A DNA stretch of 63,805 nucleotides, filler included, from Sluysia triapertura (taxonomy: Eukaryota), in assembly GCA_046118255.1 (NCBI GenBank). It is 5 parts of 5 records of this genome, joined end to end, with 100 filler letters (N's around TTAATTAATTAA, not from the genome) between each part and the next. Parts side by side here need not be neighbours in the genome. Positions count along the whole stretch, not along the records: positions 49,042 to 63,805 come from JBJNIA010249535.1; 4 more parts are not named here. One strand, written 5' to 3'. Of this stretch, positions 19,240 through 63,805 are shown one piece after another; within the stretch, counting starts at the first letter, position 1; each line of letters starts with the position of its first letter. Under the pieces are notes generated by a model. It was given only the letters and a program-made list of their open reading frames with translations, searched no databases and was not told where the DNA came from. The position numbers were made by a program, and so were the translations under genes.

Positions 19240-20110
19240 TAGAAACTCGAGGCTTAATCTACGAATTATGTCAAAAGTTAATTTATATATTCTTGAAAAT
19301 TTTTTTGAAATATATAGCAACATTGAATTTTTAATCGTGGATTATGAAGAATTAAAAATTTTTCTGGATGATGATAAAATTAACATTCAAAATGAAATTA
19401 TTTTATTTCAAGCTATTATTAAATGGATTGAAAAATCGTGAAATACATTTAATTTCTTTACTTAACTGTTTAGGACTAGCTAGATCGATTTTAAACGAAA
19501 TAAAGTCAATTAAAAAATTAATACGGTTAAAATTTTGCCACATTCTTCAAAATTGATTTTGGTATTAACGAAGCGTAAAGTTTTACGCAGAAAGCGTGGT
19601 ATGCGCGTTTTACTTGAAGCACATTATTTAAGTTTACCACATCATTGTAATTTAGTTTTTGGTGGAGGTATGTTTTGTTCACCCTATCGTAAAATGAAAG
19701 TATATAATAATCGTGATGAGACTCTAATATACCAACCGGACGAGTTTTTTTTGAAACAGTCGTAGTGGATGATTATTTTTACATGCTTGCTGGTCTAAGC
19801 GAAAAGTTTTTATCAACATCATCGGTATTTAAGTTTTCACTGCATATTCTTAAATGGTCACCATCAGCACCAATGCAAGAATGTCGTTCCTTTTTTGTAT
19901 CTATCGTTTTAAACAATCAAATATGCGCTATTGGATGACAACGTGAAGGTTAGGAAACTTTGTCCAGTGTGGAAGGATATAGTAATAAAACAAATCGTTG
20001 GGAATATATAGCTCAGCAACTCTTGATAATAAGATACATGTATTTGGTGAAAATCCAGTGTTCACAAAAATAGGTTCTAAGAATATGGTTGGTCATCATT
20101 CAATGACTGT
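19240..20110 (+). pseudogene. Kelch-like (BACK plus kelch repeats, KLHL10-like) decayed copy
   Basis: YILENFFEIYSNIEFLIVDYEELKIFLDDDKINIQNEIILFQAIIKWI is BACK-like. DYFYMLAG...KWSPSAPMQECRSFFVSIVLNNQICAIG*...LSSVEGYSNKTNRWEYIA are kelch repeats. Several frameshifts and stops; no obvious introns. Confidence 0.82.
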
Positions 20111-24539: not shown

Positions 24540-24643
24540 GTTCACAAAAAACATAACATCTAAATAAATCACATTTCACACCATCGAATTACATTAACTG
24601 ATTCATCATAAACAATATTCGACATTTATAATAATTCAACAAC
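24540..24643 (+). repeat. C/A-rich interspersed repeat, truncated at the contig end
   Basis: catcgaattacattaactgattcatcataaacaatattcgacatttataataattcaacaac closely matches 54749-54810. Confidence 0.75.
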
Positions 24644-37340: not shown

Positions 37341-38286
37341 ATGAATCAAGATTCTACTACACTGTGTATTAATATCGATGTAAAATTAATGCTATTTTCA
37401 ACACATATCCTAACAGGCGTTTTATGTCGTTCTAATCATTATGTTATGATAATTGATACAGAACAAAAAGATGAAGAATTTTCTCAATTATTACAAGGTA
37501 TTGATAGAGTTAAAAATGTTAACAATTTTACAATTATTTCAAGAACCAAAGATTTTAAAGCGTACATTTCGAACTTATCAAAGAAGTTATCTCAAGAATT
37601 AATTAACCTAATATTGTTTTTATATAAACCTATCCATTCTTGTTTAAACCAACTTTCAAGATTAATGTAAACGATTGGAATCTATTCGAACTAAAACACA
37701 AATTGTTAAAATCACTAATACCAAGTAAGTGGGCCCACTTTCCAAAATCTCTATGGTCTAATAATTACAATTATGGTAAATACGTTATGATTCCGGTTTG
37801 TGTTAGACATGAAAATAATTTTATATCATTCAGAATGAATGTTAATAATCAATTTTCAGTTTTAGTATATTATCATGAAGGAAATGAGTCTAGTTTAATG
37901 CGATGTATATTATACTCAAATGTGACACCAAAAATGAGTTCAATTGATTCGATAATCAAATTATTGCGACGTCGGTGTGAATTGACGGATTTAAGATTAA
38001 AACACCAACGCTAGGAGATAGACATGTCAAGAGATATAATTTGATATATGATAAAGTCGGAAGTATGATGACAGAACTTTACAAATTAATCGAATCTCCT
38101 ACTCTTTTGGTCTTTTTAGATTGTGTTTGGGAGATGTTACATATATACTCAATTTCATATGAAGTAAATGAAACAATTTTTAGAAATGTTACAAGATACA
38201 CTTATAATTGGGAATATGCTGCAGATATGCTAAAAGAAGAAAAATCGATAAAAATGCTTTGCCTGAACATAAAGTATGAATCATAA
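37341..38286 (+). pseudogene. Myotubularin-related (MTMR9-like) diverged, internally deleted, frameshifted copy
   Basis: GVLCRSNHYVMI...DEEFSQL...ID...TIISRTKDFK resembles the MTMR9 PH-GRAM (GTLCLTGHHLIL...EELWLL...ID...TIIIKCKDFR). YPFLFKPTF..NDWNLF resembles YPFFYRPMF..DGWHSF. FSVLVYYHEGNESSLMRC resembles FPVLSYYH..NG..IMRS. ESPTLLVFLDCVWEMLHIYSISYEVNE resembles [27 protein letters not shown]. Confidence 0.78.
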
Positions 38287-40295
38287 ATTAATGAAAATAT
38301 AATTTATCCCAAAATTTTTCAACAGTATCGATTAAGTTCTCGAGTACCTTTCAAGTATGACGTTTTCACACGCGAGTCATTATGCCATGCTATGTTCTTG
38401 GTTAGTATTGTGGTGTCGAAAATTCAGCAGTTGCCGTATCATTGCCTGGCGATACAAGCACGGTCCCAAATAAATTTTATGAAATTTCGCTTAATAACAA
38501 ATTTGTAAGTCTTAAATCGATTTATTTATTTAATTGTTTTTGGTCATTTTAGGAGAAATTAGGATCGTGAAATGCCGGCGAGTAGGACATGATCGTTGTC
38601 ATGAAACAATTATTGTTAAATATAGAACTTCACAAATTTGCAAAATAAAACTTCATCTTCAACATTTTGTTTATTTAATAATAAATTTTAATATTGATAC
38701 CTTCATTTTATTCCGTCAGATTTATGTTTTTACCATAAAAATAATATCTAAGTATATGCTAAAGTTTAATTTCAAATATGTAATCAACTATAAAAATTAT
38801 TGTAAGGTTTATAAAAGATACATAGACATGATAATAAAAAAAATTAATAACGAAATAAATATAAACTTTTACCTAATACCGAACTTTAGATTAAACAGTT
38901 ATCTTGTAGATCCTTCATGCTCATTCTTAATCTTTAGGGAACCGCTTGGCCTCATCCTTCTTAGTAAAAACAATTATCCGCCCTCAAATACAGCTTATAC
39001 CTTGACGATAAATAATAATTTTAAAAATACATCTTCAAAACTTTGTTCATCACAATACAAACCCATAACATCAACCATAGCATTAAATGTCGTGTTTGAA
39101 AGATTATTTTAAATATAAAGTTACAAGATAATGCGGAACTATATTTAAGTTGTATTGTTTTATTTTAATCAAGATACTCTCATGAGTACTTAAAATTACA
39201 ATTAAAATCTTTAAGTTTTAAATATAACTTATAATTCAATCCTGGTTAATTAATTACTGATAATTACACAATAATTGTAATTGCACAAGCTACTAAATAG
39301 TATACTGTTTCAAATTGTTTTATTGATTTTTATTTATTGGCCATTGCTTGATAGAAAACATAGATTTTGCATAACATTATTTGAATTATTTATTGGTCAA
39401 ATAACTTATCTATAGAATTTGATTATATAGAACAAGATCAAAATCTGGCTTATTTATTTTTGTAGTGTAATTCGGTCGAGTATATGTCTCACTTTTCCTT
39501 TTAATAAAGTACTTCTTGCATTTTCATTGGATATGAAGTAATTAAACCACAGACCATTGGGCCAAGCGTATCAGTTACATCACTTTGGTAATCACAATCA
39601 ATAAGCATTTTCAAGAAACGGAGCACGTTAAAGAGTATTATGTAAGAAGGTTTTATTTGCTTGAGAAAACAAAAGAAAAGATATCATTCAAACATATTAT
39701 ATAAGTCGGAATATTATGAAATGTATGAGTAAAGTGATTCTTATGTTAGTAATAACTCAGGTCTTAGAAAATATATAAATAAATGAAGATGGGGCGGTTC
39801 AACCACTTGTTACGATTATACATTACACCACCTACACGACAAAACTTCATTTTAAACATGTATAATAATGCACTCCATACATACCCTTACCTAACACCAC
39901 ATCAACTTCCATATCTTCATTATTAAGCATTAACTTTAAAATAATGAATTTATAGAATTTTCAAAACAAATCTAATTTTAAATTAAATCTAATATCCTAA
40001 AAATGCACGATCAGAATTGTCATCGTATCATTATCATGTAATCATATAATTATACTGAAAGAAAAATCAGCAACCAAGAATTAAGATTTTATAAATAAAT
40101 AATTACATAAATAAACAATGATTGCAAAAGTAAGGGTGTGATGAAAGTTAAGCTTCAGTTGAGAATATGAGATCACCTAAATTTGAAGGAACAGAAAACT
40201 ATGTGTAGATTTTAATTATGCTAAGAAAATATTCACGATTACAAATTAATGGCTTCTAATTCTTTCTTATTTTGATTATAAAAAAATTATGTTAT

Positions 40296-40454
40296 TGTTA
40301 GACTTCGTAAAATGGACTGACCGGAGATCGAACCCGGAACCATCGCTGCGCAGTTCGAATGCTCTACCACTGAGCTATCAGCCCCGTCTAACATTTTCAT
40401 TTTTTAATATATTCAATTATACTACTTGGCACTTTTAGGCCTTTTACCCCAACA
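40296..40454 (-). mobile_element. ~159-bp TG...CA repeat unit containing a tRNA-like gene (copy 2)
   Basis: Minus strand TGTTGGGGTAAAAGGCC...GTCTAACA; homologous to 35120-35275. Confidence 0.7.
40313..40384 (-). tRNA. tRNA-Ala(UGC)-like pseudo-tRNA
   Basis: GGGCTGA TA GCTC AGTGGTA GAGC A TTCGA ACTGCGC AGCGA TGGTT CCGGG TTCGATC TCCGG TCAGTCC A TTTT. G3:U70 and A73 present; positions 34-36 read TGC; anticodon stem unpaired. Confidence 0.72.
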
Positions 40455-42245
40455 TATTATATTAATTATGAAAAACGTTATTATTGTGCTTAAGACATTT
40501 AAATGAGTAGTTACAAATTATAAACTTTAACTTATTAAAAAGAAAATAATAAAAACGAAATTTATTTTTATTACACATAAATGAAAATAGATAGAGGTCT
40601 TATAACTATGTTCATGTATCAGTATGAATTAAAATTTTTTCTACTATTACTAACGTTCCCATACAACTGTATATCGATCAGAAATAACTACTTGAACAAT
40701 CTAATATACAAGTCGCCTCGAAGAGTATCGGAACACTTTATAGTAAGCCAGTGAGTTTGTCTCCTGAGACAATGGTAATTTTCATGCTACGGAGAGTAAC
40801 TTTTGTCTGTCAAACACTGCAGAACCATGGTGATACATATAAAAGATCGTTGTCAGATTTAAACGTACACTTGATTGAAAAGATAAGTGTTTCAATATGT
40901 AAAAATAAGTTAAATTAGAAGTATGATTTAGAATGTGAATATAAAAAGTGATTTAAAATGTGAATCTAACACGTAAATTTGATTCTAATTTGGAACATAA
41001 ATGTAAATGCTTAAACTCTCAAAATAATTCAGTTCGTAAATGTAAATAAAAACATTAGGTATGATTTAAGTCATAAACGTGATTTAAAATGTGAATATAG
41101 TTCTTATACTCAACCTCAGTACCATCGCGACTGCGAATCGAGGATAACTCGGTATGTAAATAATCTAAAGTACGAGTTACATTACAGTAGATCGAAACAC
41201 TGCATATTGCACGTATAGTAAATGGGTCTGACGCCTTGGACCATAACCATAATACTCTATTGCTTGTAGTCTGCTCATGACTAAGAGACTTAATCAAACC
41301 TTACATCATCGCGAGAAATAACGCGGAAAGGTGATTGATACATTAGATAATCAAATTTAACAACTCTTGTTATTTCAAAATTTTCTCGAATTCAATAATG
41401 TTGTTTATCTAATTTTTATGGAGGCAAAATTAGTTAGAAATTATTTTAAAAATTACATATTTGAGAGTGATTACGTCTTTTAGTGGTTTATTTCGTAATA
41501 ATAGTGAAATAATATTGGTCATCAAGTTCACATTTAACCAATAATCTATAGAAAATTAATATAGATCCAAAAGACTGTTGTAATAATTAAAACAGAATAG
41601 CTTTGTTTTAAATATAAGCTTTATAGTGTTTTAAAGATATTTATAGTTACTTCGCTTAATAGAAAATCAAAATGGCTTGTAATATTCATATTTTAAATTA
41701 TAAAAATGACCTTTTTTGAATCGCATAATAAACATTGCTATTAGTGACTAACAGCCAAGTTTAACACATTATTAATGATTTCGAGAAAATCGAATGTTTT
41801 TATATTTATCAGATTTCTCAGCTTGCATTGGTCAAATAAAAATTTTCAAAGTTTGTACTAATTAATCATCGCAAGTGACTCGAAATACTTAATGGATAAC
41901 GGATGATAAGTTTTATCGAATCTGCGACATTATCCAGACATTTTACTAACTGACGATCGTGAAGGAAGGAAATTCTTGATTTAAATGGTACTATTTGATT
42001 TTATCTTGCAAGAAATGTAAATGTAAATGTGACATCGATGTAAGATTGACAAAAGATTATAAAATGAATAGTAAAAATATATCATTTCATTAGTTTATTT
42101 CTTTGAAAATAAGAAAGAACTTATGCTTCAACATAATAAATAATTGTATAACTATTATTAAATAAGTACATTTGAAAGTAATTAGATCGTGGAAAACAAT
42201 TCTACTATTATCAATATGTAATTTAAAATTTATTTTTAATTTTAG

Positions 42246-42389: not shown

Positions 42390-45300
42390 TTCATATTTTA
42401 ATATTTTAAAGTGAATGCTTTTTGTGGTAAAATGCGTTAGGATTTTAAATCTTTATCCTAGAAAATTATTGCTTGGTACTTTTATATAACTGCTCTTGGC
42501 AATTAGTATAATACGCTCTGTTGCTGTAATATTTATTCTACTAGTCTTTCGTACTATTTTTTTTTCAAATTCTATCACTTTATAAGATATCAATTTCAGT
42601 GAGTCCACTACTCGTCTCTGATATTAGACATGAAAGTTTTGTATCAATAACAGTTTGTAATCTTTATATTTCGGACTTTATTCGTTAGGTCTTAGTTGCT
42701 AAACTCTATTGATTAAAATTTATGTATTAAACTCTATCAGACTTAATTGAACTTTATTCCTCAATCCCCTTTCTTATTTGTATAAGTATAAAGTAAATAA
42801 ATGAATTGTGAAGACAATACATTATAAAAAATGATAAAAAATAAGATAAAAATATTTATATAAAATGTTTAATTTAACTTTATTTTAAAAAATATAGCTT
42901 GTCGGCTAAAATTGAATTACCTGGAATTACGGGAACAAGAATCGTCAGTAACTGCTTTATACGAATTAATGATTGTACCAGAGTAATTGATTCGACATAT
43001 AGTTGATTATTTTAAAGTGGTCCCAACTATGTCGATTATTTATTTATTGTTGTGTGCTTTATTTTGAGTTAACCTCTATTTATATTCAAATAATATTCAG
43101 TATCATATAATGTTATAGCAATATATAATATTAAAATACAAAGTAACGAATTAATAATAAGTACAGAAACTTCTATTTTATCCGCCATTTTCTGCAATTC
43201 GCCGATTTATTTTTGTAAAAATGAATATAAATAAGTGTACTTTGTAATTTTTTACTCGAAAAGCCGCCATCTTTTTTCATAGTCCAGTTTTTTGGCGGAT
43301 ACATAATAGAATGAATAAATAATATCAAATGCATTATTATTTGTAATAGAATGAATTAACAAATAAGTAACCAAATATTGATAATATTCAAATGTGTCGT
43401 GTCAATGAATTGACTTAGCAGATAAAATAATTTTTGTTCACATAACTGTAGTAATTCTAATAATCTTTCAATTTTAGCCAACAAATTGATTTTTGTTGAC
43501 ATAAATTTAGATTTCAAAATATTTTCTATATGTACTCTCAATTCGATTACTATAACTTGAAACATTTTTAAAGCATTTAGTCATTTTATTTAATATTAAA
43601 GTTGCTGACATTATCATTATTATCATTATCATTATTATTATTATAATTATTATCATTATTATTATTATATTAATATTCAGAATGTATATAGAAAGATCTA
43701 AATTTATGGAAAAGTTAACTTCTCACTTCTTGAAAATGAAGGGGGGAGAAATTAGAAATTTTGAAGATTGTATTAATTTTACGAATACTAACTACGTAAC
43801 TAATTTTGAATTTGATTTAATAACCAGGTAAGTTTTTATATATTTTAATTATTAGTACTTGTTAATGACAAATTAGACGATGTTTATTGTCTATGATTTA
43901 ATCGGAATTCATATAAACATTTATACTTTTTCAGGATTTGTTAAGTACCTTTTGAAATGAATGTGGTGGTAGTTTAAATGAGTTTTGTTGATGATAGTTG
44001 TTAAGTTTTAGTTCGATTTATTTCAGATTTTAGTAGCACAATTAAAATCTGATTGATCAAGTAATGACAAAGTTTAAATTATTGGTTTAAATTTATTAAT
44101 AATCATTGATTATCTTGAACACGTTAAGTTGTGAATAAGGTCCACACAGACTTAAAGTTTGAGTAGTTAAAATTTAACAAAGTATTGTTTAAATGTTCAC
44201 TACAAATTTTAAATAACATAAGTGTAGATTTAAATTTCAAATGCACAGTTATTTTTTACGACGTTTTATGATTAAATGCATATTTTGACATTTTCCGAAG
44301 CTCCTGAGGGTTTTAATAAAATTCTCAAAACTATCGAGAGTACAGTTTGATAAATTTAGATAAAAGATGTACCACTCATAGAACAGACCTTCAGAACTGG
44401 AAAATAATTCTCCGAATACTCAAATAAGTCCAATAGAAGATTTTGTAATAAGAAGTAGTCATACAACCATTTTAAATTATTCAGAACTACATAATTCAAA
44501 ATCAGTATAGAAGATTCCGAGTCTTAATTGTAATTTCTATATTGAATCTTTCTTGGACCCAATTATTATTATTATTATTATTATTAATATTTGTATAAGA
44601 AGTATTATTTTCTGTTAAAAATTGGTGCTTTTGTGTGTTTGTGTGATCTTCAGATTTCATACAATCAAAAACTTTCTCAAACTTTTAAACAATTTATTCA
44701 ATGTCACATACAACAATATGCCAACTTTCTTAAATTCATACTCCTTTTTTGCAACTAAATTTAAATTTTAAAATATTAAATATTTTATAAACTTATTAAA
44801 TTGGAATAAAATAAAATAATAATCATATTTTTTATCTGTTACTTTATTATTTTTTTACTTTTATTTCATTTTTATTTTGCTTAAAATATTGATGAATTGG
44901 TCAATCAATTTTCATTTTCTTTAATTTTAAATTAAGGCTGAACGTTGCTAATGTACAATTCTAATTATTATTGTTGGGTTTGGTTAAAGATGACGAGGAA
45001 CACGAAGGTTATAACTCATAGTGTAAAAATAAAATAAGTATCATTGAGAAATTAAGATAAAGCATAACGATGAATTGTGATAACAAAATAAGTGTATAAA
45101 AGAATGAAGATAGAAAAAACTCTTTATAAGGTTTTATTTGTTAAAATATTAATTTAATTTAAAATTGTTTAATTTGATAAATTAGTGAAAAATATTGACA
45201 GAAATTACTATTGAACTTTTTAATGAATGAATAATTTTATAAGTAACTATTTATGTTACTTCCAATATTTGGTATATAAAACTTCATCTCCATTAGGGAT

Positions 45301-45908
45301 AAACACTATGATTAACAATAGTTTTATTGTTAGGGTTAGCATCTTACGTTATTAATAAAATTCGTCAACATTTATTGTATTATGTTATTCCTGGATTTTT
45401 ATGTATTTAGTACATAAGACAGTGTGATTTATAAATTTACACATATTTTTATAAGAGTAGTTGATAATTTATTGCAATAATTAAGAATATATTGAGATTT
45501 CGTATTAATTTGATTATTGAGTTATTTTTAAATAAAGACAACAGTATTAAAAAAGGTTCTGAATATCCAGAGTATATTGTTTCATAACAAAGACAAATAA
45601 TTGAAAATATATTCATAATAAATTCATTTTATATTGTTGAACAAGTAACTCATTTCTGATTGGTTAATTATAAATACTTTTATTATTATTATTGTATTTT
45701 AAAATAGAATCTTTGCGATCACGTATATAATTCTGGCAATTTTATAATTTTCAAAATACTGTATTTATTCTTAATTTAGATTATATCAACCATGGCAATA
45801 TTTCATTGATATATGGCGAGTCGTTTATAATCATCCAGGATATTTACATTTCGGAACATATGGTGAAACTAATGATATTTTGACAAAATACATAGAAAAA
45901 CCTGGCAC
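42246..45908 (+). CDS. CBL: Cbl-family E3 ligase, TKB domain (end of four-helix bundle, EF-hand, start of SH2), partial; exons 42246-42344, 43681-43827, 45780-45908
   Basis: Three phase-compatible GT..AG exons. ELQEYFPNGKFQKYTINNKEADKWWKKNF resembles [50 protein letters not shown] resembles IDLTCNDYISVFEFDIFTR. LYQPWQYFIDIWRVVYNHPGYLHFGTYGE...YIEKPGT resembles [30 protein letters not shown]...FIHKPGS. Confidence 0.88.
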
Positions 45909-47542
45909 GTTAGTTTAACATTATTTGAGTATTAGATGCTAAATATTGAGTCTTAAATGTTAAAGTTATATTAAGTGAATTTTGTGTGCTGATACATTAA
46001 CTTTTTTTTAGTGTAGTTTATTATTTCAATGATGAACTTAAAAAACAAGTATCATTTTTATTTTGTAAAAATCCTTTTTTTTAATAAGCCCTTATATATG
46101 TTGAGTTAATTTCTTTCGAAAATTGTTTTATTTTGTTTTACAGTTTCATTTTACACAAATTTATAATATTGACCAATAACAGCAATCTAATGTGTACAAT
46201 ATTACCTAATGAAATGTTATTTCTCACTGCTTAATTTTTAAAATACTAAATTAATAGTATTAAACAGGCTTGAGTATAATAACTCAATAGTAATGGTGAT
46301 GATTTTATTACAAATGCGCTGTACCTCTCTCACCATTTTTAAATATGTTTATATTTTTATCTGGAGCGATACCTTCTCGCTAGTTTGTATTTCATAGAGC
46401 TTAGTGTATACTCGTTTGAATTTAGTGCTTTTCAATTTTTTGTTTTTTTTAAAGTTTATATTATTATTATTATTATTATTTCTACTTTATCAACATTATA
46501 AATAAAAACAATTAAAAAACTACTTTTTTTGACCTCATTTCACAGAAAAGCACTCGCATTAAATGGTTAAGCACAATTTTTAGTGCAATGAAATTTTGTT
46601 CTTAAATTTATCTTTGTTTTCAATTATTATTATAAAGCATTATTATTAACCAGTTTAGTAGTTTTGTTACAATAATTTTACACCAATTTTTATTTAAGTC
46701 CATCATTGTTCTATATTGAAAAGGTTTTGCCAAATGTTTATGATTAAAAAAAATGAAATTGGATAAAAGTAACAGTATAACGTAAAAAAACGTTAGTTTG
46801 TTTTTATTAAGCTTGCCTCGTTAAAGTAGCTCAAGGTCATACGTTGATTGATAATTTACTACTTTTAGGCCACTTTAAACATAAATATTATTATTAAGGT
46901 TCAAAAACCTTAATAAACCAAATATTATTTTTTATTTAATTTCATACAATCTTAGTTTTATTTTAGTTTCTTTTGATTTTATATATGTTCCACTTTATTT
47001 AATATCAATTTAACGTGGCCACTGACCTTCTCTAGAATTATTATATAGAAAAAGATAATAAAATTAACATAACATACATCACGAAATGTAAATTACAAAT
47101 TTTTTCTATTAATATGTCAAATAATTCACTACATAAAAATTTTAGCTGATAATCCAATTAAATATTAATATTGAATTTAAAACATTACGTTTAATTAAGC
47201 CCGCAAATTTTTGAATAAACGTGATGAAAAATGCCCAAAGCAATAAGTTATTATTATTAACTTATGAAGTTTAAATAAAGCCATTGCATACGTTTCAGTT
47301 AATGGATCAATAACTTTGGATTCATCTTACAAATTGATGTGTGTTTGTATTTTATTTCATTGTATAAAATTTGGTGCAAAATGTGAACAGTTTCTGAAGA
47401 ATAATTTTTACTAAATTTAAAATAAATTCTTTATTCAAGAACTGAAATAAAATCACGAAAAAAACTTAGAATTTTGAAAATGGAAAAGAAGCAATTCAAA
47501 TAAATAAAAAATAAAATGAAAAATAAAATAAAAATTATAATT

Positions 47543-49041: not shown

Positions 49042-50403
49042 ATTAAGTTATTTCTTCTAGCAAAAAGGACGTTTAATCAAAATGATTATCATTAAATTTC
49101 TTTAGCATAACCAGGCTTAATGCCGTTTTTCTTTTAACATTTACTTCAAATTTGTAATTGAAAAACAATTTGATAACTTTATTTTTATTTGTTAGTTTAT
49201 CACAATTTAAAATAAATACATTTAAACTTTTAATTAAATTTTATCACTGAATTATGTTCAATAAAAGTCTGTAATTCAAAATATAATTAAATAAATAACA
49301 ATGTTTATAAGAAATTAGATTAAACTTTAAAGGAAATCTAATTTTCTATGTATAAAGAAAAATATTCCTTGAAACGGAAAATTTTATATTTTTAACCTAC
49401 AATTAATCTTTTATAATATTAGATTTTCTTCATTTTTTAAAACATTGAAAGATTTTTCTAGCTCTAAAATTCAGAATAATTATAATATTATGAAAATTTT
49501 ATGAACATTTTATCCCACAAATAATACATAATTTTGACTTAAACTAATAACACAAATTAATCAATTTGTAGTTCAGAAAACTATTTATGTTGGAGTTATA
49601 GAAATGCATCGAATTTATATTGAATATTATAAAAAAATAAATATTCTAATGACATAATTTGGTAAAACAAATTATGTACTAAATAGCAAGTCTCTGATAT
49701 TTTAACTCACTCATACGTTTTATTATGTGTATTTTAATTCTATTATTGAACCATAATATTTTAAATATGTTAAATTATTCAGGCCTTTAACTACGACTAT
49801 ATATTTTTAATAGGCAAGTCGCTCAATACACAAAAAAACTAAAATATAAAAATAAAAATTTTCAATTAAAAATTATTTATTTTGTTTTAGAACAATATTT
49901 TTGCAAGAATAAAATTTAAAAACACATTCTTGCATTTAGAACGAAATAAAATATCTTCTGTAAATTGATGTTCTTGCAATTTGAAGCTATATCTGTCTGT
50001 ATATTCATGTAAAATGAAAATTTCGCTAACAAAATTTAAAATTTCAGTTTGAGTTTAACGCAAAATGTTTCATTTTAACCTAGTAGAAAACTTCTATAAT
50101 GTAATATTTTCTCTAACCTGATTATTTTTGGTACAGAATATAAACTCGACTTATGCAGATGTATATTTCTATTACTCATATTTTTGCCTCTAAAATAATA
50201 TACAATCTAACTTGCATCAGTTGAACTTTTTCAAATTTGAAATTTTCTCTATACTTATTTTAGGTCTAAAATGGATATAATTCTTTATAATTATGATTTA
50301 TTCTTTTAATTAGACCAAATAGTAATAAATTACGTGAGTTTGTATGCTCTGTGCATCTAAATGAATTCAGTTATTCATAACAAAGACAAGCTACAACCAT
50401 TCC

Positions 50404-50468
50404 TAGCGCAATTCATCAGATCGCGTACCTCATATAAGTTTCGTTGCGTCGTCTATTGACGACAGCTA
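50404..50468 (-). ncRNA. Hammerhead-ribozyme-like motif (type II order), possibly inactive
   Basis: Minus strand GCAAC-GAAA-CTTATATGAG-GTA-CGCGAT-CTGATGA-ATTGC has both core strands, a GUA triplet, stem II GCAA/TTGC and a short stem III. Stem I cannot form. Confidence 0.4.
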
Positions 50469-50639
50469 CAGTTAAAAGGTTAATAAAAATAATTTAATAT
50501 TTTACAAAAGATTTATTTTTATTTTTGGTATTGTTCAATCACAAAAAATAACTAATGAAAAAATATAGTTAATAACACTATAAACTTAGTTTTATTGTCC
50601 AAAACTAAACTTTGTGGAACTTATTTATCATATTCTAAC

Positions 50640-50906
50640 CTCACTGTTACTTGGTCTTTCAAAATCTGAAAAGGACGGTGTATGATAAGGTGATTCTAAA
50701 AAATAAGTGGCCCAAATTTGATTTGGCGGTCTAACATGAAATGGTCGATTAACATTATGCATCCACAGAATAACATGAGCTTTACTGGCCTTTTCTCTGT
50801 CATCGGTCAATTTACACCACTTTACAGGACACTGATCAAATTCATGTTCTGGATTTATACCAGCCATTCCATTAAATAAAAGAATAAGTTTTGTCTTTGG
50901 TGGAAT
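50640..50906 (-). CDS. Alpha-1,3-fucosyltransferase (GT10, FucTA-like) internal exon
   Basis: AG acceptor at 50908-50907 and GT donor at 50639. KLILLFNG...CPVKWCKLTDDREKASKAHVILW...RPPNQIWATYFLESPYHT matches the GT10 N-terminal domain (C....C.LT.DR...A..V...RP..Q.W....ESP). Confidence 0.85.
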
Positions 50907-53499
50907 CTAGAAAATTTTTATTTTAGTAATTATACATTTTAAATTATTTGATTATTTGTTTTACATTGTTTAACATAAAAATGTTTAAATAAATTTTTTA
51001 ATATTTTTAAAATTTAAATTTGTAATGTACCAAAATGAAAATATTTCTAACGTATTTAGATTAAAAAAAAGTTAATCAAAATTATAAAAACAAATTTAAA
51101 CAATAGAAATAATAAAATCTACATCAGAGGTTTTCTTAACAATTAAATATAAAGTGCAATAGTTAAAATTTTCTAATGTTAACATCGGTAGAAAAATATT
51201 GATAACTTTTTAATCTAGACAGGCAAATAGAGTTAAAAATATTAAAAAATAAAGAATATAATACTGGAAACTTCATTTATTTATTTATTTATTTTATACC
51301 TTTATAATTTTTACTTACTTATTCGTTATGTAAATTGATTTAATCGATTTTTGTAGAAATACATATGTAAAAATATAAATACTAAATTTACAAGAAATAA
51401 AAACATCAATATAATTAAATAAAAATTATATTTTAAAGTTTAAAAATCATTTCAAATAATTTTCACTATAAAAATTGGTGTTGATTCCTTCTTAACTGAA
51501 TTTGAAAATCCAAAAAAATGCATTATAATTTATTTATTTTAAATGTTAAAATGTAACATATTTAAGAAAAAAATAATAACAATAATAAAATAAAAAGAAG
51601 ATATTTAATTATTAATTTATTTATAATTTCATATTAACTTCATTCAATAATATAATAAATAAATTTTGAACTAAAATAAAATAGGTATAATATAATATTT
51701 ATATTTTAAATTTTATTTACTAATAATTTTCTTGTAAAATTATTTTATTCACTTAAAACATATTTTGAAAATTTTTATTAACGTGGAAATTTACTTTCCT
51801 GTATTGCATTGATTATTCTAACAAAACAAATTTTCATAGATGAAAGAGGTTTTACTTTCAGTAATTTTGTGTTAAATTTAATGTCAAATTTTGTACTAAT
51901 TTAAATAATTTCGAATAAAGAAATTATTAAATTATTAGAACAAAGTATTGTTACAAATAATCTTAAATTTTTTCTATCAATAGTTATTAGTATCATACAA
52001 ATATAATAAAATTAATCAAACCAAGTTAATTTAAATAAAAAATACTTATAGCTAATAAATATTTAAAGACTAATAAAATTTCTAATAAAAGACTAATAAA
52101 AATTTAAAGTCTAATAAAATTTCTACTAAAAATAAAAATGTGCAAAGATAGTCAATATTCCAATATTCTGTAACGGTTTCATTTTTTAAATATAATATAA
52201 GATTTAGTTAATAGTTTAACTATTGTCAAGTTATAACTTTACATTTTTAACGGATTTAATATTATGGCTTGTAATTTTTAATTTCATACTAAAATTTTGC
52301 CCTAAAGTTAACTTTTGTTATGTGACATTTTTTACTATAGTGAAATGAATCTAATATATGCATTAAAATGATAACATGGCAGTAGATGGATTTAATAGTG
52401 GATTAGTGGAAGCACAATTTTAGAGCCTTCCGATTGGTTGAATGTTGCTTATTAGAGTGAGTACTACATAAGATTTGTATTTGGTGTTAATAAATTGGAT
52501 ATTGATTTTTAATTTTTAATGGGTCGATATTATAAATTTATATTATTTGTACGCCTACGATCCTGAATAAATTAAAAAATTTTGAGTAAAAAGTATATTA
52601 GTCATAACTAAAATACTAAATATAAAAATTAGCAGTTGTTACCATCTAATGCGTAGCAGACTTGTGTATAAGCCATTTTTTCATTCTTCATATCAGTAAT
52701 TCTAACAATAATAGAGTAATTAGGTCGTATTTTTTCTATCGTTCTTGTGACAGACTCAGAACATTTAATGGTATTTCCTTTAGTGATGTTGTATCTTAAC
52801 ATACTTCTAATAAAATTGCAACAAACTAAGTTGCCAAGAATTTTACATGTAATTTGAATTTGTAAATTATATCTTGTAAAAGTACATTATCTATTTTTGT
52901 ATCTAATATATTTTTATTAGTCGAAAATTTTTGTTTCACGGTTTTGGTATGCTAGTTGAATTTGGTACTCCATTCAAATTTGGTATGCCAGACGATTTTC
53001 GTAAAATCGGTATTGTTTTATCAACTTTTGTGCATGTACCCTCGCAGACAAAATAGAGCAAAGAATTTAGTAATTACTTTGCTAATGTGTGTGGATAGAA
53101 AAATTTATACCTATATCATTAAGTACAAAGAAATTATGTCGTCATTTGTTTAAGTCAGACTAGCAAATATTAAATACGAATGTCACGTTTGAGATTATAT
53201 TAGTCATTTAAAATTTAATCAATAAAAGCAAATACAATAAATTAAAAAGATTATTCATTGATTATTTTTGGGATGTGAGAAACAAATAGAATATATTTCA
53301 TATCCAATCAGAATCAAAATTAATTGCAAACAGTCATATTCAAAATGGACCATATAGTTAATTTACACAAACTATGAACTAACTTGATAACCAAAATTCT
53401 AAAAGTAATTTTCAAATAGAATGGTTTAATACTAATGGTAAGATGGGTTCATTATTATCTAGTTTAGTTAATATAAAATCATATTGATGTAATGGAAGG

Positions 53500-54230
53500 C
53501 TAAGACAAAGTCAATAGATATATGGTTCGATCCGAAATACCCAGTTAGTTACACAATAGTAAAAAAATATGGAGAGGTGACATAATGGTTGAGAAATCAG
53601 TTGGGATACTCACTGAGACGAAGATTTACAATACGTAAATATAAAAAGACCAAATGAATTGTATCAAACTGATTTAATGGAAATGATTCTATATTCAAAA
53701 ATTAATGATGGTTACAAATATCTTAAATTATTTTGATGTTTTTCCAAGATTAGTAAAAACAGTACCGATTAATCATTATTCAGTGCTCAGTCACTATAAA
53801 GTGGCATTCGTTGAATGATTTGATAGCAATATAAGATAAATTAATAAAAGAATTTTACAAATAATCGTACTAAAATATGTATTAATGTATTACCTTATAA
53901 ATTTGATGCAAAGTAAACACCGAGGGCTTGATGGACTTAAACCTGTAGATATTAATGTTGCTAATTTTATTGAAATGCTGCAAAAGCATAATTTTAAACA
54001 AAAGATAAACCCAAATATAGAGTTGGTAATTACTTAAGAATATCAAAAATTTCAGCAACTACATTCATAATAAACTTTAAAAATTGGAGTGATGAGGTGT
54101 TTCAAATTCATGAAATTTGTACAAGACGAAATTTGTACAAATTGTACAAAAGTACGATTCATAATTATAATTAATTCATATAACTATAATAAATAAAAAT
54201 TGGAATACAATATAAAAGGATCAATTTTCA
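53500..54230 (+). mobile_element. Polinton/Maverick retroviral-like integrase relic
   Basis: Decayed motifs in the expected order: WFDPKYPVSY, WLRNQLGYSL, PNELYQTDLMEM, NDGYKYL..DVFSK, NHYSVLSHYKVAFVE*F, LKPVDIN, KPKYRVGNYLRISK, NWSDEVFQI. Confidence 0.85.
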
Positions 54231-54644
54231 GTAATTTGTTTCGAGTCTGTTTTTATTATTATTTCGAAAAATAGTTCACCAACTCCTAAGTTAATAAATA
54301 TAATCAAATAAATTAAAGTATTTAAATTTATATCAAAATCTTTAAAAATTTATTGAAGTTTCAAACGTAATAGATCTGATTTATTGGTTTTTCTTACTAT
54401 TTTATTCGTCCCAAGCGCCGAAAATAAAAGTTAGTAAATTATTCTCAACTTATATTTTCAGATTTTACTTCTATCCATCTATCCAACCAATTAAAACCCC
54501 AACATTTAATTAAGAGATCGATCAAATCAAAACTTATACCGTAACGGACAATGCAAGATCTGTATTGTATTGGATGTAGCAAGATATCAACTTCAGTTTC
54601 AGCAAGTTTGTGAAGACCTTACTGAGACTAATTTTTGTGCAATA

Positions 54645-55400
54645 TCTTGTAGTGGTCAACACTCACAACTTAAAATTCATTAAAACATTATATTCAACAC
54701 CCATAATTCAAATTTTACTAAATTTTACTAAGTCAATCACACTGACACTATCGAATTACATTAACTGAATTATCGCAAACAACATTCTACATTTATAATA
54801 TCTCAACAACTCATATATACCAACAATTCGTCTAATACCCTCAATCATCCACTTCACAACATACTCTGATAATTAATCCCGAATAATCTATAACACTCAC
54901 TCAAAAGTTATTTTATCAAACAAACCACAACCATAATACATAATATGTAAATCACAAATACATTAATACCATACAACAATATTAACACTACCTCAGACAA
55001 AGAAAACATCTACGTTAAAACCTCGAATCAACTACACCAAACCAAACCCACTTCATTTACACATATTCATCATCAACACTTATTTTTAACAACATCACAA
55101 ATAAGCTAAGATTTATTTTGTAATCGTCTTTTAAATTAAACAAACTCCAACCTTTCAATAAACATCTCAAACCATTATATTCAATGCATAAATCTTGTTT
55201 TCAATTATAAATCTTCAATAAATTTCAACAAATTATTTTAACATTCGTCGTTTCAAACACAACTCAAATCATTTCTTTTATCTTCATAAGTAAACATAAT
55301 AAAGCCTTCAAAAATTCATTATCTTACTATTAAACAGCAACGACAACTGAAGTTTAGCATATCACGTTACCGTCGCTACTTAATGTAACAACAACCGTTT
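54645..55400 (+). repeat. C/A-rich interspersed repeat (longest copy), abutting the upstream part of cassette B
   Basis: Strong G depletion on the plus strand; shares blocks with 12245-12431 and 24540-24643. Confidence 0.65.
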
Positions 55401-55563
55401 TTACTCTTCTTTCTACTTTACGTATGTAAGAAATATGAAATATTGAAAGAACAGGTCGTGTAATTTATTTAAAGATAAGATTTATGCATTTTATTTCCAA
55501 TAACAATAATAATAATAATTACAATGTTATTATTGTTATTATTATTACTACTCTTATTAATTT

Positions 55564-55810
55564 ACCAAATATAAATTTTGCGTTAATGTCGATCAATCTG
55601 GTTGCTACCATTACCAGTGTTGACATTCTATGTTACATTTCTCATTAGAGTGCCAACGCTGATGAGGGTCAGTCATCAGTTACACTTCATATTAAATTTT
55701 AATTATACTTTACATACCCCATCCAATCGAGACCTAATTTTGCTTGTATCATTTTTAAAAGGCCTCGATTGGATAACCAATAAGCAAACAGGCAAAATTA
55801 GTAACAATTA
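55564..55810 (+). promoter_or_regulatory. TATA-like motif plus double-hairpin cassette (copy B)
   Basis: TATAAA at 55570; ~33-bp stem 55598-55679; 14/15-bp inverted repeat ATCCAATCGAGACCT/AGGCCTCGATTGGAT at 55721-55774. Homologous to 36925-37185. Confidence 0.65.
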
Positions 55811-55875
55811 AAAATAACAAGAAAAGAAAATAATAATAAAATTGTTTTTGGTGGCGGTTATAAAATAATTACGAA

Positions 55876-57474
55876 TTGTGTCAACTTCAACCTAACAATT
55901 CTACAAAGCAGATAAAAACAGCACTAGATCAATGTCAACAACTTAGTCAGGCAACTATGCGAATTTTATTAGTAGTCGATTTTTGGAATTTACATCAATT
56001 TGAATTTTATTTTCCTAAAACGCGAAATGATTATTTTTATGATGAAAGTATTTTTTTGAAGGACGAACTCAAAATGCAAACGCTATGGTTTTCACCCTTA
56101 GATAAGGGTCAGGAGATTTGGAACAAAAATTAGAATGCAGAATCATTAATGATAACTATGTCGAATTAGACAAAAAAATTACGAGGTACCTCAATTTTGT
56201 AGAAATATACAGTCTTCAAATGAATCAGTATTTTACAATAATGTACTACTTTACTTAAGATGTCTGGAGGATGGCTTTAATCGAAATGAAATAGTTCAGA
56301 TATATAACGATTATGATAAAGAAAACTGGAATCAATATGAATTTAAACATTATTATCAGAATCTTTCTAATCGTTTACTAGACTTAGATCAGTCAATTAT
56401 TAGTAACTACAGTAGGATTGAATCAATTCAGCAGGATTACTCAAATAAAGTTACAAGTCTAATTGAATTTATAGTGATACATAAATTAGTAAATAAAGTT
56501 TTTAATGTTCTGAAATTTGTAGAAGATGATTGTCGAAAGTCTCGAATTCCGATTGATCAACTGATGGTTACAAATATGTTCAAAAAACAATTTTATGTTC
56601 CAATCTCGCAAATGAATAATCAACTCCATCGTAACACTATAATTTTGGCTCCAGTTCAAGCAAATAAGATTTTGAGAGGCACGACCAATCCATGTTCAAG
56701 TATGATGACACGTACATTCAACAATGAAGTCAATTGTACTCATTTAGTCAACACCAACAATGGATGCTATATTATATATTTAAACTTAATTAATGGTCTG
56801 AAATCAACGAAGCAACATCATCACTTCAGCAAATTACTACAATACAACTCATTAATAATGAATCAATTGACAAAGGAGATCTTGAGTTTTTTATTAGAAA
56901 CTTTTCCAATATTAAATCAATTAGTGTGAGTTCTAATTTTATACATTTATTAACTTTTATTTTAGTTTACACGATTCACAGCTGGATTGGTGAAGAGCAA
57001 CAGAGCATGCCACGCTACAAGGGGTCAGCAGAAGAAATAAAAGTAAAAAACAAAATTTTAAATCCGAGTACGATTTATAACAATTGACCTTTTAATAATA
57101 GATTTTCGTATTATTAGTTTGAAAGTTTTTTGTTCCTTATAAACAATAACATAGTGATCTCATATTTGCTAGAAATAAATGAAGATAAACCTTTTGATAA
57201 TTTTGAAGTCGAATTTACTAAATTCATGTTTAAAGACATAATGATAAACAACTTGTCACAAAATTATAAAATGAAGATACAGTACTTGAATGACAAAAAA
57301 GAAATATTGATAGGTTCTAGTATAGTTTTGAACGTCATTCATTTTAAGCCTAAAATTAGAGTAGTTTCTGAAGCGTTAAATTCCTTCTTTAAACTTGCTC
57401 AATATAAATGTAATAAGATGCATATTATGTTTTTAATCAAACAAAAAAAATGCTATATTACCATTAAATCATAA
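55876..57474 (+). pseudogene. Diverged DH-PH RhoGEF copy, ECT2/pebble-like, with stops and frameshifts
   Basis: QFYVPI...ILAPVQANKILRG resembles ECT2 LFQVPL...ILAPEEIKTIFG. Y..YLN...FSKLLQYN resembles Y..FVN...FHAFLKIN. FLFLINNNIVIS resembles the PH strand TLFLFNDCLEIA. TLLKMSGG is BRCT-like. Candidate 40-nt intron at 56926-56965. Confidence 0.5.
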
Positions 57475-60103
57475 AACAAAAAACGATTATAAACGCCCCA
57501 AAAACATAAACAACCCAAAGATCTAAAGTTAATATTAATTGATTTTACCTGTATTTTGCGTAGATATCGTGAAGATATCGAATCATATCACAAATAAACT
57601 AACGTTTATATAAAAGAAAATTGGAAAATCTGATCAGGAGTCTTTTCTGTTATAAATTCTGTGCCAATTAAAATGATTAATTCGGTTTTAGAACTGTTTG
57701 AAATTGAAATGTAAATAGTCTTGAAAATTGAAATTTAAATCGATTATGTGTTGTGAAAATTTTCTGAAATTGTAATACTATTTATATAATTTTTTCTTGA
57801 CCTTCACCAGATTTAAAGATGCTATTTAATATTTAATATTTAAAATTAATAAAATATTCATAAAATTTTTTTAAAAAATAAGTATTAAAAATATTTATGA
57901 GTTTAAAAATAAATAAAACATATTTTTAGAAATCCAATAATTAAAACCAACAATTATAACAATTGAAAAATGATTTACAATAAAATAATCAATGGTTTTG
58001 TATAAATAATCAATATTGAATATACTATTGTACAAATAACAAATGAGTCATACATAACATTAACTTGTATAATAAACGAGTCATATTCTTATTTATTCTG
58101 CAACTCGTTTTCTGACTAATTAAGTGTGATATGCTACATTCTTCCTTCTTATTTTTCTTTCATTATTTTTTGAGCGCCACTATGAATTACTTACTTTCCA
58201 TTTTCAAAGTTCTAAAAATTTTTTAAATTTATTAATGTTCTTAAGTTCTTGAGTATACATTTAAATGAGTAAAAATTTTATTTTATTTATATCTTTACTA
58301 TAGTATAATAATATATTTAAATTCGCTAGTTATTTACTTAATCGATCGTGATCCAAGCTCTGTGCAATAATTTTGGTGTTATACTTGATCCGTATAAAGA
58401 TAATTTACGAATAATTAGTTATTGTACTAGAAAGAATTAGAGTCATTATTATCTAATATCATCTAAGTTTTAAGTTAAGACTTAAATCCCTATTGGGTAA
58501 GATGCGATAGTTCAAGAAAGATTTAGATCACTAAGAATTTGGCAATTTGCACAAAATTAAAATTAGACCCTCAATCTGAGATTAAGTAATACATCAACTG
58601 GAATTAGAAAGTAAATAGTTAAAATATACACTAAAATCGTTTACTTATAGTTACAGGTACGTCTACTCTAAGTTTTAAATAAATAAAATTTGGAATAAAT
58701 AAACCACATCAAAGCAATGAATGAAGACTACTATCGAGAAATTCTGAAAGTGAATGTCTGAAAGGTAATGCTCTGGCTCAAACGTGGTGTCAATCTTTTA
58801 TCAATAAAGTTTGGAAGATTTTGAAAGTTTCGATACAATTTTATTTGTAAAAGCTAGTCTATGAAACATGTGATAATTATATTATACTATGTGTTATTTA
58901 TCCTTAAAAACTTGAATATCTTTTGATGAATGTTGGCTTATTTATCATTGTGATTTCTTACTATCTGTCTTGCCTCTTTTCAATCTACAAGATGGAAATT
59001 AGTAAGGCGAATAGATAAAGTTTTATGACAAAGCTAAATATTTATCTTGTATTTTAAACTTATCTTCAAAAAATACTTAATTGATAATAGTAACTTGTTT
59101 AGAAATTTTGCATTAGAAAATTGTATTAAATACAAATCACAAAATGGCTTATTCACAAAGTTTTATCGTTGAGTGAATGGATTACCATTTAATTGGTCAC
59201 TGTCTTTTGAATTAATTGATTCTATAAAACTAATGAATTCCTTTACTGTTTTTTTGGTATTTACTCCAATATGGCCTTCTGATTAATAAATTTTATTAAG
59301 GCTGCATAATAAATTTGTTTTGTACTATATTTTTAGGTGATTTTTGTTGCATTTTATTTATTTTTGTTTAATTATGACCATGATCATGTTTATTTTTAAT
59401 TAACGTTTTTGACTTTGTAGATAAAATCAATTTATTTATTTTGCATTTAAGTTATCAATGCAGGTAATATGAAAAGGCTCTATATATTAATAAATCGGAA
59501 AGCTGTTTCAAAATCTGCAGAATCAAAATGAATTTCTAAGTTTATTACTGATTTTATAAAGTATTCACTGTTATGTGGACATGGTTGAAAAATTAATTAA
59601 AAAACAGATATTCTATTAAAATTAGATATTATTGATACATTAACCAAAGTGATTTAATATAAGCATTATATCTATAAAATCGAACAATAGCAAAATTTAC
59701 TACGAAAAATTTTCTCTAATAATAATTATTATTTCTTTCAATAATTCACCAATTATAATTTAAGTTTGTCAGGAATAAACATCAATTATTATATTGGAAA
59801 TTAAATTCAAAATTATATTTCATAAATGGCACCTCCCTATCAATGTATTTATCGATAATAAAGTAAAATTTCATACATAAGCATAAATAAATTAAAATAT
59901 CTATAAACATTAAAATTATTATTTTTACAATAATCAAAAATAATATAAATTTACATTTTATTTCTAATATTTAGTTTTGCTAAATCATTACAATGAAAAA
60001 ATGTATGGATTATTATAAATGTATTTACCATTTTGTCCGGTTTGAGGTTTATGAAATTAACTCAGTTTGATTTTATTTTAACTAAAATAACCATTCTCTA
60101 AAT

Positions 60104-60324
60104 AAGCGTTTCTCAACATTTTTACCCCGCGACCCAATAACATTTTTACAGATTGTTCTGCGACCCAATTTTTTATTACATAAAGGAATGCTAAGAAATA
60201 AAAAAGACATACTATTGGCGTTTTGATTGCATAAATTAATTTTTTGTATGTAGTTAATATTTATATTATAATATATTATTTATACTAAGCCGTGAATCCT
60301 CGACCCAACGATTGAGAAACTGTG
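60104..60324. mobile_element. hAT (Charlie-like) MITE
   Basis: Perfect 8-bp TSD CTCTAAAT (60096-60103 and 60325-60332); ends aagcgtttctcaa / ttgagaaactgtg; internal CGACCCAA repeated three times. Confidence 0.85.
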
Positions 60325-60974
60325 CTCTAAATTATGGCATGTTAGAAATGTAGTGGCAAAAATATGCAGTCTGAATTCAGTTTACTTTTATTGCAGTCAA
60401 TTCAAGAATATTTATTTTTCACTTTTTACGATTTTTAAACTCATTGTTGAAAGACAGAAATTTCTAAGCTGTCTTCTGCATTTAAACTAAACTGATGATG
60501 AAAAATTATATTTTTTAATGCATTACTTTTACAAAGTAATTGAGTGGTAAAATAATAGATAAAAATTTTGAAATATGTAACTTAACGAAAACATGGAGTA
60601 ACGAATACCAAATTATATAATTAAAAACAGAACTGAAATTTTATTTTTAAAATTGGTACAAAAGCTTGAACAAGTAAGTTTTGTGATGATGAATTATTGA
60701 ATGTAATAGTTAGTATATTTGTAAATACGTGTTGTGTGTAATGTGTTATGACTAATAGATGTATAAATGACCAATTTACGATATTTATTCTGATTAATCT
60801 ATGATATATTGTTATTCTGAATTATTATTTATTGATTTTAAACTACATTATTTACATAATTATTCATTTTATGTTTGTTTAAAATTATTTAATTTTACAA
60901 TTTCGGAATTATATCAAAAGTATGTATAATTTTTATAATTTTTAAATTTTATTAAATTTAATATTTTAAATCAT

Positions 60975-61241
60975 TAACGTGATCCAACTAAATTATTATT
61001 TTAAAATATGTTATTAAATTATTATTTTAATATGTTTTTGTTTTAAAATTAAATTACTATTTTTGTTTTAATCCGACCTCAAGGTCAGATTAAAACTACT
61101 ATATATTAAAAACAAAAAATTGCAAAAAGCATTCACACACGACACACAGGAGCAAATTTTGATTTTAAATTTTTTGTTTGGAGAAGCGATTTTTAAAGGA
61201 ACAGTTTTCGATTTTTTAAATTTTCGAGTTGGATCACGTTA
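60975..61241. mobile_element. TA-flanked MITE with perfect TIRs and an internal palindrome
   Basis: TAACGTGATCCAACT (60975-60989) and AGTTGGATCACGTTA (61227-61241) are exact inverted repeats including the TA; 14/15-bp internal palindrome at 61065-61096. Confidence 0.8.
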
Positions 61242-62094
61242 GGTTAATTATTTTTTTAAGGTAGGATATTTTTTGAATATCATAGGCAAAATATACTAAA
61301 AATCATTTTTAAATTCTGGACCTTATAAAGGTCTATGGCAAAATAATTTTTTAACTTTTGAATTATAAACAAACTAATTACATTTAGTTTATTGCAAATT
61401 TTTAATCTATACTATAACCATTTGGTAATTTATCTTACTTTTTACATTTTTATTAATAAATTGTTTAATTTGTGTTTGCTATTCATTTTATAGTTTTAAA
61501 ATCTTAAAATCAATCGATTTATACGTTTTCCTATACTAGAAGTTAACTCTAGTAAGCAAAATCTATTTTTCTGATCCCATATCACGGGATTTACGTAACA
61601 TTACAACTTAAAATCATTGTATTTAATATATAATTAACTTGATTTAAGTCACTTAAAAATTCACCACCAGAATTAAGTTAGTAGACAAGACCTATATTTA
61701 AAGTAAAGCATTCTTTCTTGTATTAAAAAATCCAACGGCTGGCCCTCATTGGTAAGTCCAGTACGTTGGTGAACTCACGCAAATTTTAATTTAATTAACT
61801 TTTCTTACACATTTACTTTTAGTTTGTGTATTTGATCATACGATGGTAAATGTTAAGGAGAATGTGTAAGATTACTGGACGTGTTAAATCTGTTGAAAAT
61901 TAATCAGAAAATAAGATCACAGATATTATATTAAATTGAATTAATAAAGATCTTTAGAAGAAATTGAATTTATATTTTGAAATTATAAGATGATTATTTC
62001 TTAACTTTAAGAAATTAAATAAATAGTTATTTATAAAATTTATTTGCAACATTTCACGCTGCGGTAAATTAAAATTTTAATTTTCTTTATTGTA

Positions 62095-62133
<39 letters not shown>

Positions 62134-63805
62134 GCTGGGTGTTTTTCTTAATCTAAAAACCTAACCTACCTCAAAATAATTAATTATTCTGAGTCCGTTT
62201 ATAGTATACGACTTACTAATGGCGTACCTGTAAAATTACGCGAAGACATTTATCAAAATTAATCGTATAAAAATATGCTTTGCCTTAACTTAATAATAAT
62301 GGGCAAAAATCGTCGTTTAGGTCAACTAACAAGAGATAACTTAAAAAACTAATTAAGACCAACGCTAACTTAGGAATTGTATAAAATTCAAGTGAATAAT
62401 ATGGAGGTGTATCTTTCCTTATCTCTTTGTATTTTAATTTAATGATCGTTAGGCCTTTTGGTTTTTCTTCTAAATTTAATGGAACACAGTTAGAATTATG
62501 GTAACTATCAAATAAATCTAAGTTATGATCTTAATATTAGAATAATTAACAAAACGTACAATTTTTAATACTTTTATTATATAAAAATTTGAATTAAAAT
62601 AAAATTATTACAAATACACAAAATTCAATAAGAGATAATTATTAATACGACAAAAACAATATAAAAAATATTAAAAATGATAAAATTATAATAACGATAA
62701 TAATTGAAATATAATAAGAGTCTAGCCCAGAAGACTCTACCCTACAATATCTATTTTATAATTGACCTTAAGGACCAACTAAAGGTCTAAGATTTTATAT
62801 TTTAAATGGATTTTGTGATTGGCCTTAATGACCAATCGTGAAAATAGTATTTTACGTTTAAATTTTAACTCAACAAGTGAGTGTTCACCTATGTAAAATC
62901 AACTTACGGATTAATCAATAATAAAAATCGGAGCTCGGCTGCTGGAAGTAATTTGTTGAAGACTGACTTGGTCTGTGGTGATGTTGACGTTTGGAGATCG
63001 CTATCCCTCTAATCGTAGACGCGAGATTTAATCAATAATGTATAAATTGAATCGAAGAGTTGATAGAATGCACCACAAGCTGATGATGAATTCACGCTAT
63101 AACCAAAATAGAGTCTTCTGATTTATAATAAGCCTTGTTTGGAATAATGGCGATCTTCTTTGTTTATAATTTAATTGTGAATTGAATTTTCTTTGATTGT
63201 TATTATATAGTCATAAAGACATTTTAAAGTTTTTATTTTAATTAAACAAACAAGTTTCTTTTGTAATGTTTTTTAATTTATAATAATAATAATTTTAATT
63301 TTAATTAATAATTAATAATTTTAATTATTAATTAAATTAATAATGTTTTAAATAATATAAATTTTAATAATTTTTTATAATATTTTTATAATTTCATTTT
63401 TCATACAAAAATCATAAAAATAAAATTTTTTACGCCTTTACAATAGTTTAGAAATTTATTTTATTGATCCTAAAGAAATATTAATTTTCCAATGAATATA
63501 ATGTTGTCTACAACCAAAAACAATATCATTTAAAGAGAAACATTTAAATTGTAATTAAATTTATATTTATGTGGTGATATCAAAGATTTTTTCGGTTCAA
63601 AAAACCTTAAACCATATATGTGTGCGGGTTATATTAAAAAATTGATTTTTACAATGCGGGCTACAAATTAAGTGCGGATTATACTATGGGGTAAGTGTGC
63701 TGTTTTAACTGCAATTTATAATGATAGAAGATGTTTAGAAGAGTGGTTGAGGGCGTCTTATTATGTGATGGTCGAATGTATTGAAGAATGTTAGCCTTGT
63801 TAAAA

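Follow-up and report, generated by a model that had tools for sequence, protein, structure and literature searches.

Large DNA elements are known to capture cargo in nematodes and in fungi. In the part of their description drawn on here (10.1101/2022.07.12.499685), nematode Mavericks carry intron-bearing cargo beside an integrase, and those with wasp/krma cargo resemble the locus reported below in that their cargo is multi-copy, intron-bearing and fast-changing and adjoins a retroviral-like integrase. Helitrons and the Burro giant gypsy elements resemble it in carrying host-derived regulatory domains or gene fragments; the portion of PMC6431247 considered here names RING, BIR and ankyrin domains for Burro and terminal hairpins for Helitrons. 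The locus described here differs from the nematode Mavericks in having a palindromic leader common to different cargoes, a feature that does not appear in the same part of the Maverick description (10.1101/2022.07.12.499685).

The window, that is the whole stretch of DNA analysed (63,805 nucleotides of Sluysia triapertura, assembly GCA_046118255.1), is AT-rich animal DNA with a GC content of ~25%, and its assembly is fragmented, with 100-nt gaps interrupting the sequence. Pfam places a 7TM receptor and a UCH-family match in it, the latter gene being probably USP9X-like as we read the match; a putative mariner-like transposase relic recognised by eye (2380-3400) lies in an intron of this gene. 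Further broken regulator genes are found by Pfam elsewhere in the window. A broken BACK and Kelch gene occupies 19200-20100 on the plus strand (Pfam E 9.4e-10 and 1.1e-7), a RING-finger ORF piece stands alone at 29797-30150 (plus strand), and a resemblance to a Cbl SH2-like domain at 45775-45915 (plus strand, E 4.8e-5, below the cut-off) is followed by a GT donor-like site. An N-terminal piece of an alpha-1,3-fucosyltransferase lies on the minus strand at 50631-50906 (Pfam E 5.4e-11), with no recognised adjoining exon. Repeats comprise a pair of tRNA-containing sequences, 85% identical, at 35117-35291 and 40292-40472, which may be tRNA gene copies or a SINE, and an inverted pair, 69% identical and without family match, at 33405-33607 and 45026-45191.

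Cassette B consists of a leader and a broken ORF, and we consider it probable, if only just, that it represents one decayed example of a cargo module which a mobile element spread at the DNA level in many copies. The sequence is multi-copy, its leader is common to different cargoes, it once had coding capacity, and an integrase relic lies next to it. The leader, with its three inverted repeats (palindrome 0, hairpin 1 and hairpin 2), and the TATA motifs are as follows.

55400..55834, plus strand: leader B, 63% identical to leader A (36741-37204) over ~450 nt.
55499..55546, no strand assigned: palindrome 0, an AT-rich inverted repeat (fold z -4.4; copy A -4.8).
55570..55575, plus strand: TATAAA within a 9-nt block that copy A shares without change, a putative promoter element.
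55598..55679, plus strand: hairpin 1, a 35-pair imperfect stem with a 10-nt loop, pri-miRNA-like in shape.
55721..55774, no strand assigned: hairpin 2, with CCAATC and GATTGG in its arms.
55859..55864, plus strand: second TATAAA, 73 nt before an ATG at 55932 and absent from A, an alternative promoter candidate.

The arms of palindrome 0 are simple-repeat and the element is hence weak, but it is found in A too. Hairpin 1 has fold z values of -3.6 in B and -6.6 in A, hairpin 2 of -4.6 and -4.2, respectively. A TATA-driven structured RNA of pri-miRNA-like type, with the transcription unit beginning at the base of hairpin 1, would account for the 35-pair stem with its G-U pairs and three two-sided changes, for the better folding of hairpin 1 on the plus strand, and for the finding that the commonest letter at 55666 in a public sequencing run (X1, see below) closes a stem mismatch. 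We regard this as doubtful. The alignment of the two hairpin 1 sequences, in which 87% of cells are paired, is equalled by 54 of 500 shuffles, so that its covariation is without significance; the conserved part is the basal and not the upper stem; and no Rfam family reaches its gathering cut-off on the leader, the best being mir-192 with 23 bits versus 54. The preliminary description had also seen in the TATAAA at 55570 the canonical distance to a transcription start. The motif is indeed there, 28 nt ahead of position 55598, where the pairing of hairpin 1 begins, but this reading of the spacing is weak, as the window holds 311 TATAAA hexamers with 315 expected by chance, the corresponding distance in copy A is 43 nt, and palindrome 0 lies upstream of the motif; the spacing had thus been over-read. 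Moreover, since hairpin 1 folds better on the plus strand and hairpin 2 on the minus strand, the folds do not favour an RNA from either one of the strands, and for the leader as a whole palindromic DNA is as plausible as a transcript. A covariance model of the hairpin finds A and B only in the 64-kb window, with no free-standing third copy, and the hairpin pattern is absent from the viral and metagenome contigs searched and from all of 111 loci. No description of such a leader was found in a search of the openly accessible literature, bioRxiv supplements aside.

Downstream of the leader lies the broken ORF:

55864-57474, plus strand: broken ORF B, ~1.6 kb, in several frames.
55864..56130, plus strand: ORF piece 1, stop-to-stop, 89 codons, without family match.
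56156..56929, plus strand: long ORF piece, 257 codons, without significant relative.
56926..56965, plus strand: intron candidate GTGAGT..TTTTAG, 40 nt.
57118..57474, plus strand: last ORF piece of 118 codons, without PH match, weakly placed on ARNT PAS-B.

The broken ORF of ~1.6 kb that had been proposed here is borne out; its open piece of 257 codons is far beyond chance (no order-1 resample among 1000 reaches it, their longest pieces averaging 74). The 40-nt intron candidate proposed with it holds as a sequence; the strict GTGAGT..TTTTAG-type pattern occurs five times in the window, including the copies in B and in A (38505-38552). At least four or five breaks interrupt the ORF, and excising the candidate from the long frame still leads to a stop within nine codons. 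Codon-usage scoring failed to separate the frames. One might suppose that gene B is intact and that its breaks stem from errors in the assembly or from introns that went unrecognised, given the fragmented assembly with its 100-nt gaps, the 10 of 40 listed positions that differ in every X1 contig covering them, and host introns that, judged by eye, can go down to about 40 nt. Yet none of the 12 best-supported of 68 indels lies at the breaks, those within the ORF being minority variants, all six host exons tested are stop-free, and several neighbouring genes are broken as well. We therefore hold an intact gene to be highly improbable.

But from which gene would the B protein derive? The preliminary description assigned it to ECT2, a BRCT-DH-PH RhoGEF, on DH, PH and BRCT-like traces. 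The short motifs quoted for these domains are present in the translation, and a few appear ECT2-like by eye; the domain identity did not stand. For B, Pfam yields no RhoGEF, PH or BRCT family at E<=1 and E<=10, with whole pieces, X-read frames or sub-pieces, so that the profile match on which the assignment would depend is absent. CorA (E 0.001), RUN (E 0.01) and Aida_C2 (E 0.03) came up in the same Pfam searches and were set aside, being under their cut-offs. No RhoGEF or BRCT protein appears in any of five phmmer searches of the PDB with B pieces at E<=10, and human ECT2 presumably has an entry there. The long piece has no match among 1.84 billion representatives, no relative among 385 longer-protein candidates in a weak search, and none among viral contigs, and an exact look-up gave 0/6; the best ESM Atlas score is 0.78, below the usable level. 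Single-sequence folding gave a model of pLDDT 37.6 without fold match at E<=0.001 and another that is one long helix. In addition, the 'ILAP..I.RG' stretch that had been read as DH aligns instead to helix 2 of the BMAL1 bHLH domain (PDB, E 0.7-1), and the BRCT-like trace follows this supposed DH motif, the reverse of what we take to be the domain order of ECT2. An origin from ECT2 thus has no profile, sequence or fold support and is most unlikely. The searches are insensitive at this divergence, as a recognisable myotubularin piece of copy A (37628-38011) also came out blank by word search and in the PDB.

The alignment to BMAL1, which is weak and covers bHLH helix 2 and linker with residues at about 56603-56752, raises the possibility that B derives from an ARNT/Tango/BMAL1-type bHLH-PAS factor, the long piece then covering bHLH plus PAS-A and the last piece PAS-B. 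The domain order of ARNT is bHLH, PAS-A, PAS-B. BMAL1 chains make up three of the top four PDB matches (E 0.68-0.78), although unrelated PDB proteins score equally well. From 111 loci with an ARNT/BMAL1 motif, 19 distinct long members of 22 were compared; in 14 of the 19 the long piece falls at the beginning of bHLH/PAS-A, and in 15 the last piece falls on PAS-B, in colinear order. Then again, these members are closely related to one another, and the BMAL1 match had already been seen when the hypothesis was picked. An ARNT-type profile scores 5.2 bits (equalled by 18/1000 shuffles), but the BMAL1-type profile is equalled by 868/1000 and the pooled profile by 153/1000, and the long piece ranks only 6th by profile among 1,679 window pieces. 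The sole tblastn match of the 19 members to B is short (E 4.1), frameshift-aware scores of 29-55 compare with a maximum of 55 in 200 shuffles, z is at most 1.2 for the long piece and at most 2.0 for the last, and Pfam gives no HLH or PAS match. Taken together, the ECT2 label is unsupported, and ARNT/BMAL1 is a somewhat better guess, unproven and, in our estimate, doubtful; with ECT2 lacking a match and the ARNT/BMAL1 scores at or near those of shuffles, the searches do not single out a parent gene of B.

The same leader fronts a different cargo in copy A, which is located about 380 nt from an assembly gap:

36741..39112, plus strand: copy A, in which the leader precedes a myotubularin derivative that is broken and internally shortened.
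38505-38552, plus strand: copy A intron candidate, 48 nt.

Pfam matches the myotubularin model twice in A, with E 7e-4 for model positions 2-100 and E 1.9e-6 for positions 299-344, and the top five PDB matches of the second piece are MTMR2, MTMR8 and MTMR1. The two matches are separated by 185 nt; because about 62 codons here stand for about 198 model positions, the myotubularin of A is diverged and shortened, as the preliminary description had supposed of the B protein beyond what its lesions would explain. No protein similarity between the A and B ORFs is found by tblastn. A connection of Burro elements with myotubularin was not confirmed; myotubularin is absent from the Burro domains in the part of PMC6431247 considered here.

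Sister copies of cassette B were sought in X1, a single public run that possibly stems from the source sample and contains 46% of the words, by placing its contig pieces on 55300-57650 at >=80% identity. All 30 bins of this region are covered. Among 1,134 pieces, 83 are 99%+ identical, 185 fall at 95-99, 394 at 90-95 and 472 under 90, so that 866 lie under 95%. Summed contig depth, which is not equivalent to copy number, is 180-1,976 over the ORF, 535-9,876 in the bins of 55300-55852, and 5,338-9,876 over hairpin 1, where it is deepest; eight listed single contigs have depths of 14-49, with 20.5 for the listed exact match. A loose reading would put the ORF at tens of copies and the leader at hundreds. 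Depth is still 3,213-5,921 at 55300-55457, left of the A/B homology, which places the left edge of the repeat further upstream.

The excess of leader over ORF is also what would be expected if an independent MITE-like palindromic repeat had inserted upstream of host genes, be these an expanded family or segmental duplicates, with the integrase a chance neighbour. This is the main rival to an element-borne cassette, and eight contig pieces that switch to other sequence straight after hairpin 1, at 55681, fit it, as does the lack of element ends (see below). We nevertheless find it unlikely, because both leaders have the same orientation and lie at comparable distances from their ORFs, each about 1.6-1.8 kb long and carrying an intron candidate, and because the 64 kb hold no free-standing third hairpin.

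The preliminary description had proposed that B evolved as a coding sequence before it decayed. Former coding is borne out by the long open piece, but the differences from sister copies do not bespeak selection. Of 540 substitution places 40 were listed, and 28 of these, in the three main ORF pieces, were used (nine upstream, one ambiguous-frame and two downstream positions being omitted); seven are synonymous and 21 non-synonymous, near the neutral expectation of 6.4 synonymous, and no purifying selection is visible in these 28 listed differences. Since no listed indel falls at a break, the breaks may be common to many copies. If so, much of the amplification would postdate decay, which would speak against the cargo having been under selection by then.

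A processed pseudogene was likewise considered and rejected: the intron candidate is present, no A-run of >=9 occurs across 57400-58500, and no parent is found in the representatives. A sequence that was once coding, is multi-copy, lacks poly(A), holds an intron candidate and shares its leader with other cargo fits cargo borne by an element but does not fit a recent processed pseudogene, and on this point the original proposal is supported.

What kind of element might have carried the cassette is suggested by a relic 1.3 kb upstream of leader B:

53520..54132, plus strand: rve integrase relic, Maverick/adintovirus type, broken and 3'-truncated.

It matches rve proteins (three of the 12 candidates, best E 2e-15), tblastn agrees, and one rve relative has a weak sub-threshold match to a chromodomain, a domain described for adintovirus integrases in the part of PMC8502044 considered here. 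The degraded rve integrase with such relatives is a likeness to adintovirus/Polinton relics as presented in that part. Unlike in these, the integrase is the sole identified gene here, and its membership in the cassette is putative, being suggested by position only. The C-rich stretch separating it from leader B contains a repeat copy (54728-54810) that is 83% identical to 24560-24643, and this other copy stops at a gap. An integrase profile run across the window marks one place only and none near copy A; Pfam misses the relic itself, and a viral search with integrase queries gave no locus.

Other element hallmarks were not found within the ranges searched, in which respect the locus differs from the nematode Mavericks as far as the consulted part of their description goes (10.1101/2022.07.12.499685), as it does in having its cargo downstream of the integrase. 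No polymerase (PolB), ATPase, protease or capsid is present among 102 stop-free window pieces of at least 46 aa that are neither low-complexity nor low-GC, a scan that heavily broken genes escape. No TIR and no target-site duplication was found in the gap-free 49042-63805; a 34-nt inverted match of 53460-53493 with 60056-60089 was judged not to be a TIR. Different from Helitrons and Burro elements, the locus shows no Helitron 3' signature (0 matches to one strict pattern of hairpin then CTRR on both window strands), no LTR pair, there being no downstream copy of the leader, and no RT/gag piece. A Maverick/adintovirus-like carrier is accordingly a tentative proposal, to which we give clearly less than half of the total weight, other DNA elements sharing the rest.

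We suggest that in a DNA-level mobile element of whichever class, three inverted repeats and a TATA-like site would form a high-copy leader to which ORFs taken from different host genes are attached, a myotubularin in A and another in B, with the leader serving as the cis module of the element, be it promoter, origin or end structure. The leader-plus-cargo unit would have been amplified as DNA, retaining intron-like sequence, and the cargo would have diverged fast while it was coding; copy B would now drift neutrally.

A bolder and rather improbable extension is an undescribed animal element family in which one conserved palindromic leader acts as a plug-in head for interchangeable, stripped-down host regulators that work as decoys. 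If this were true, the leader would be a promoter or origin, possibly doubling as a pri-miRNA scaffold whose upper stem varies, and the cargo would comprise a myotubularin that has lost the bulk of its central part, possibly also a bHLH-PAS factor, and perhaps Kelch, RING and Cbl pieces, which as decoys would bias host signalling in the manner of polydnavirus or poxvirus cargo. If one structured leader stands before unrelated ORFs of host origin and has been amplified to far greater depth than these, this would indicate modular gain and expression of cargo, and such a shared-leader system would offer a clean case in which to ask whether captured regulators evolve as decoys.
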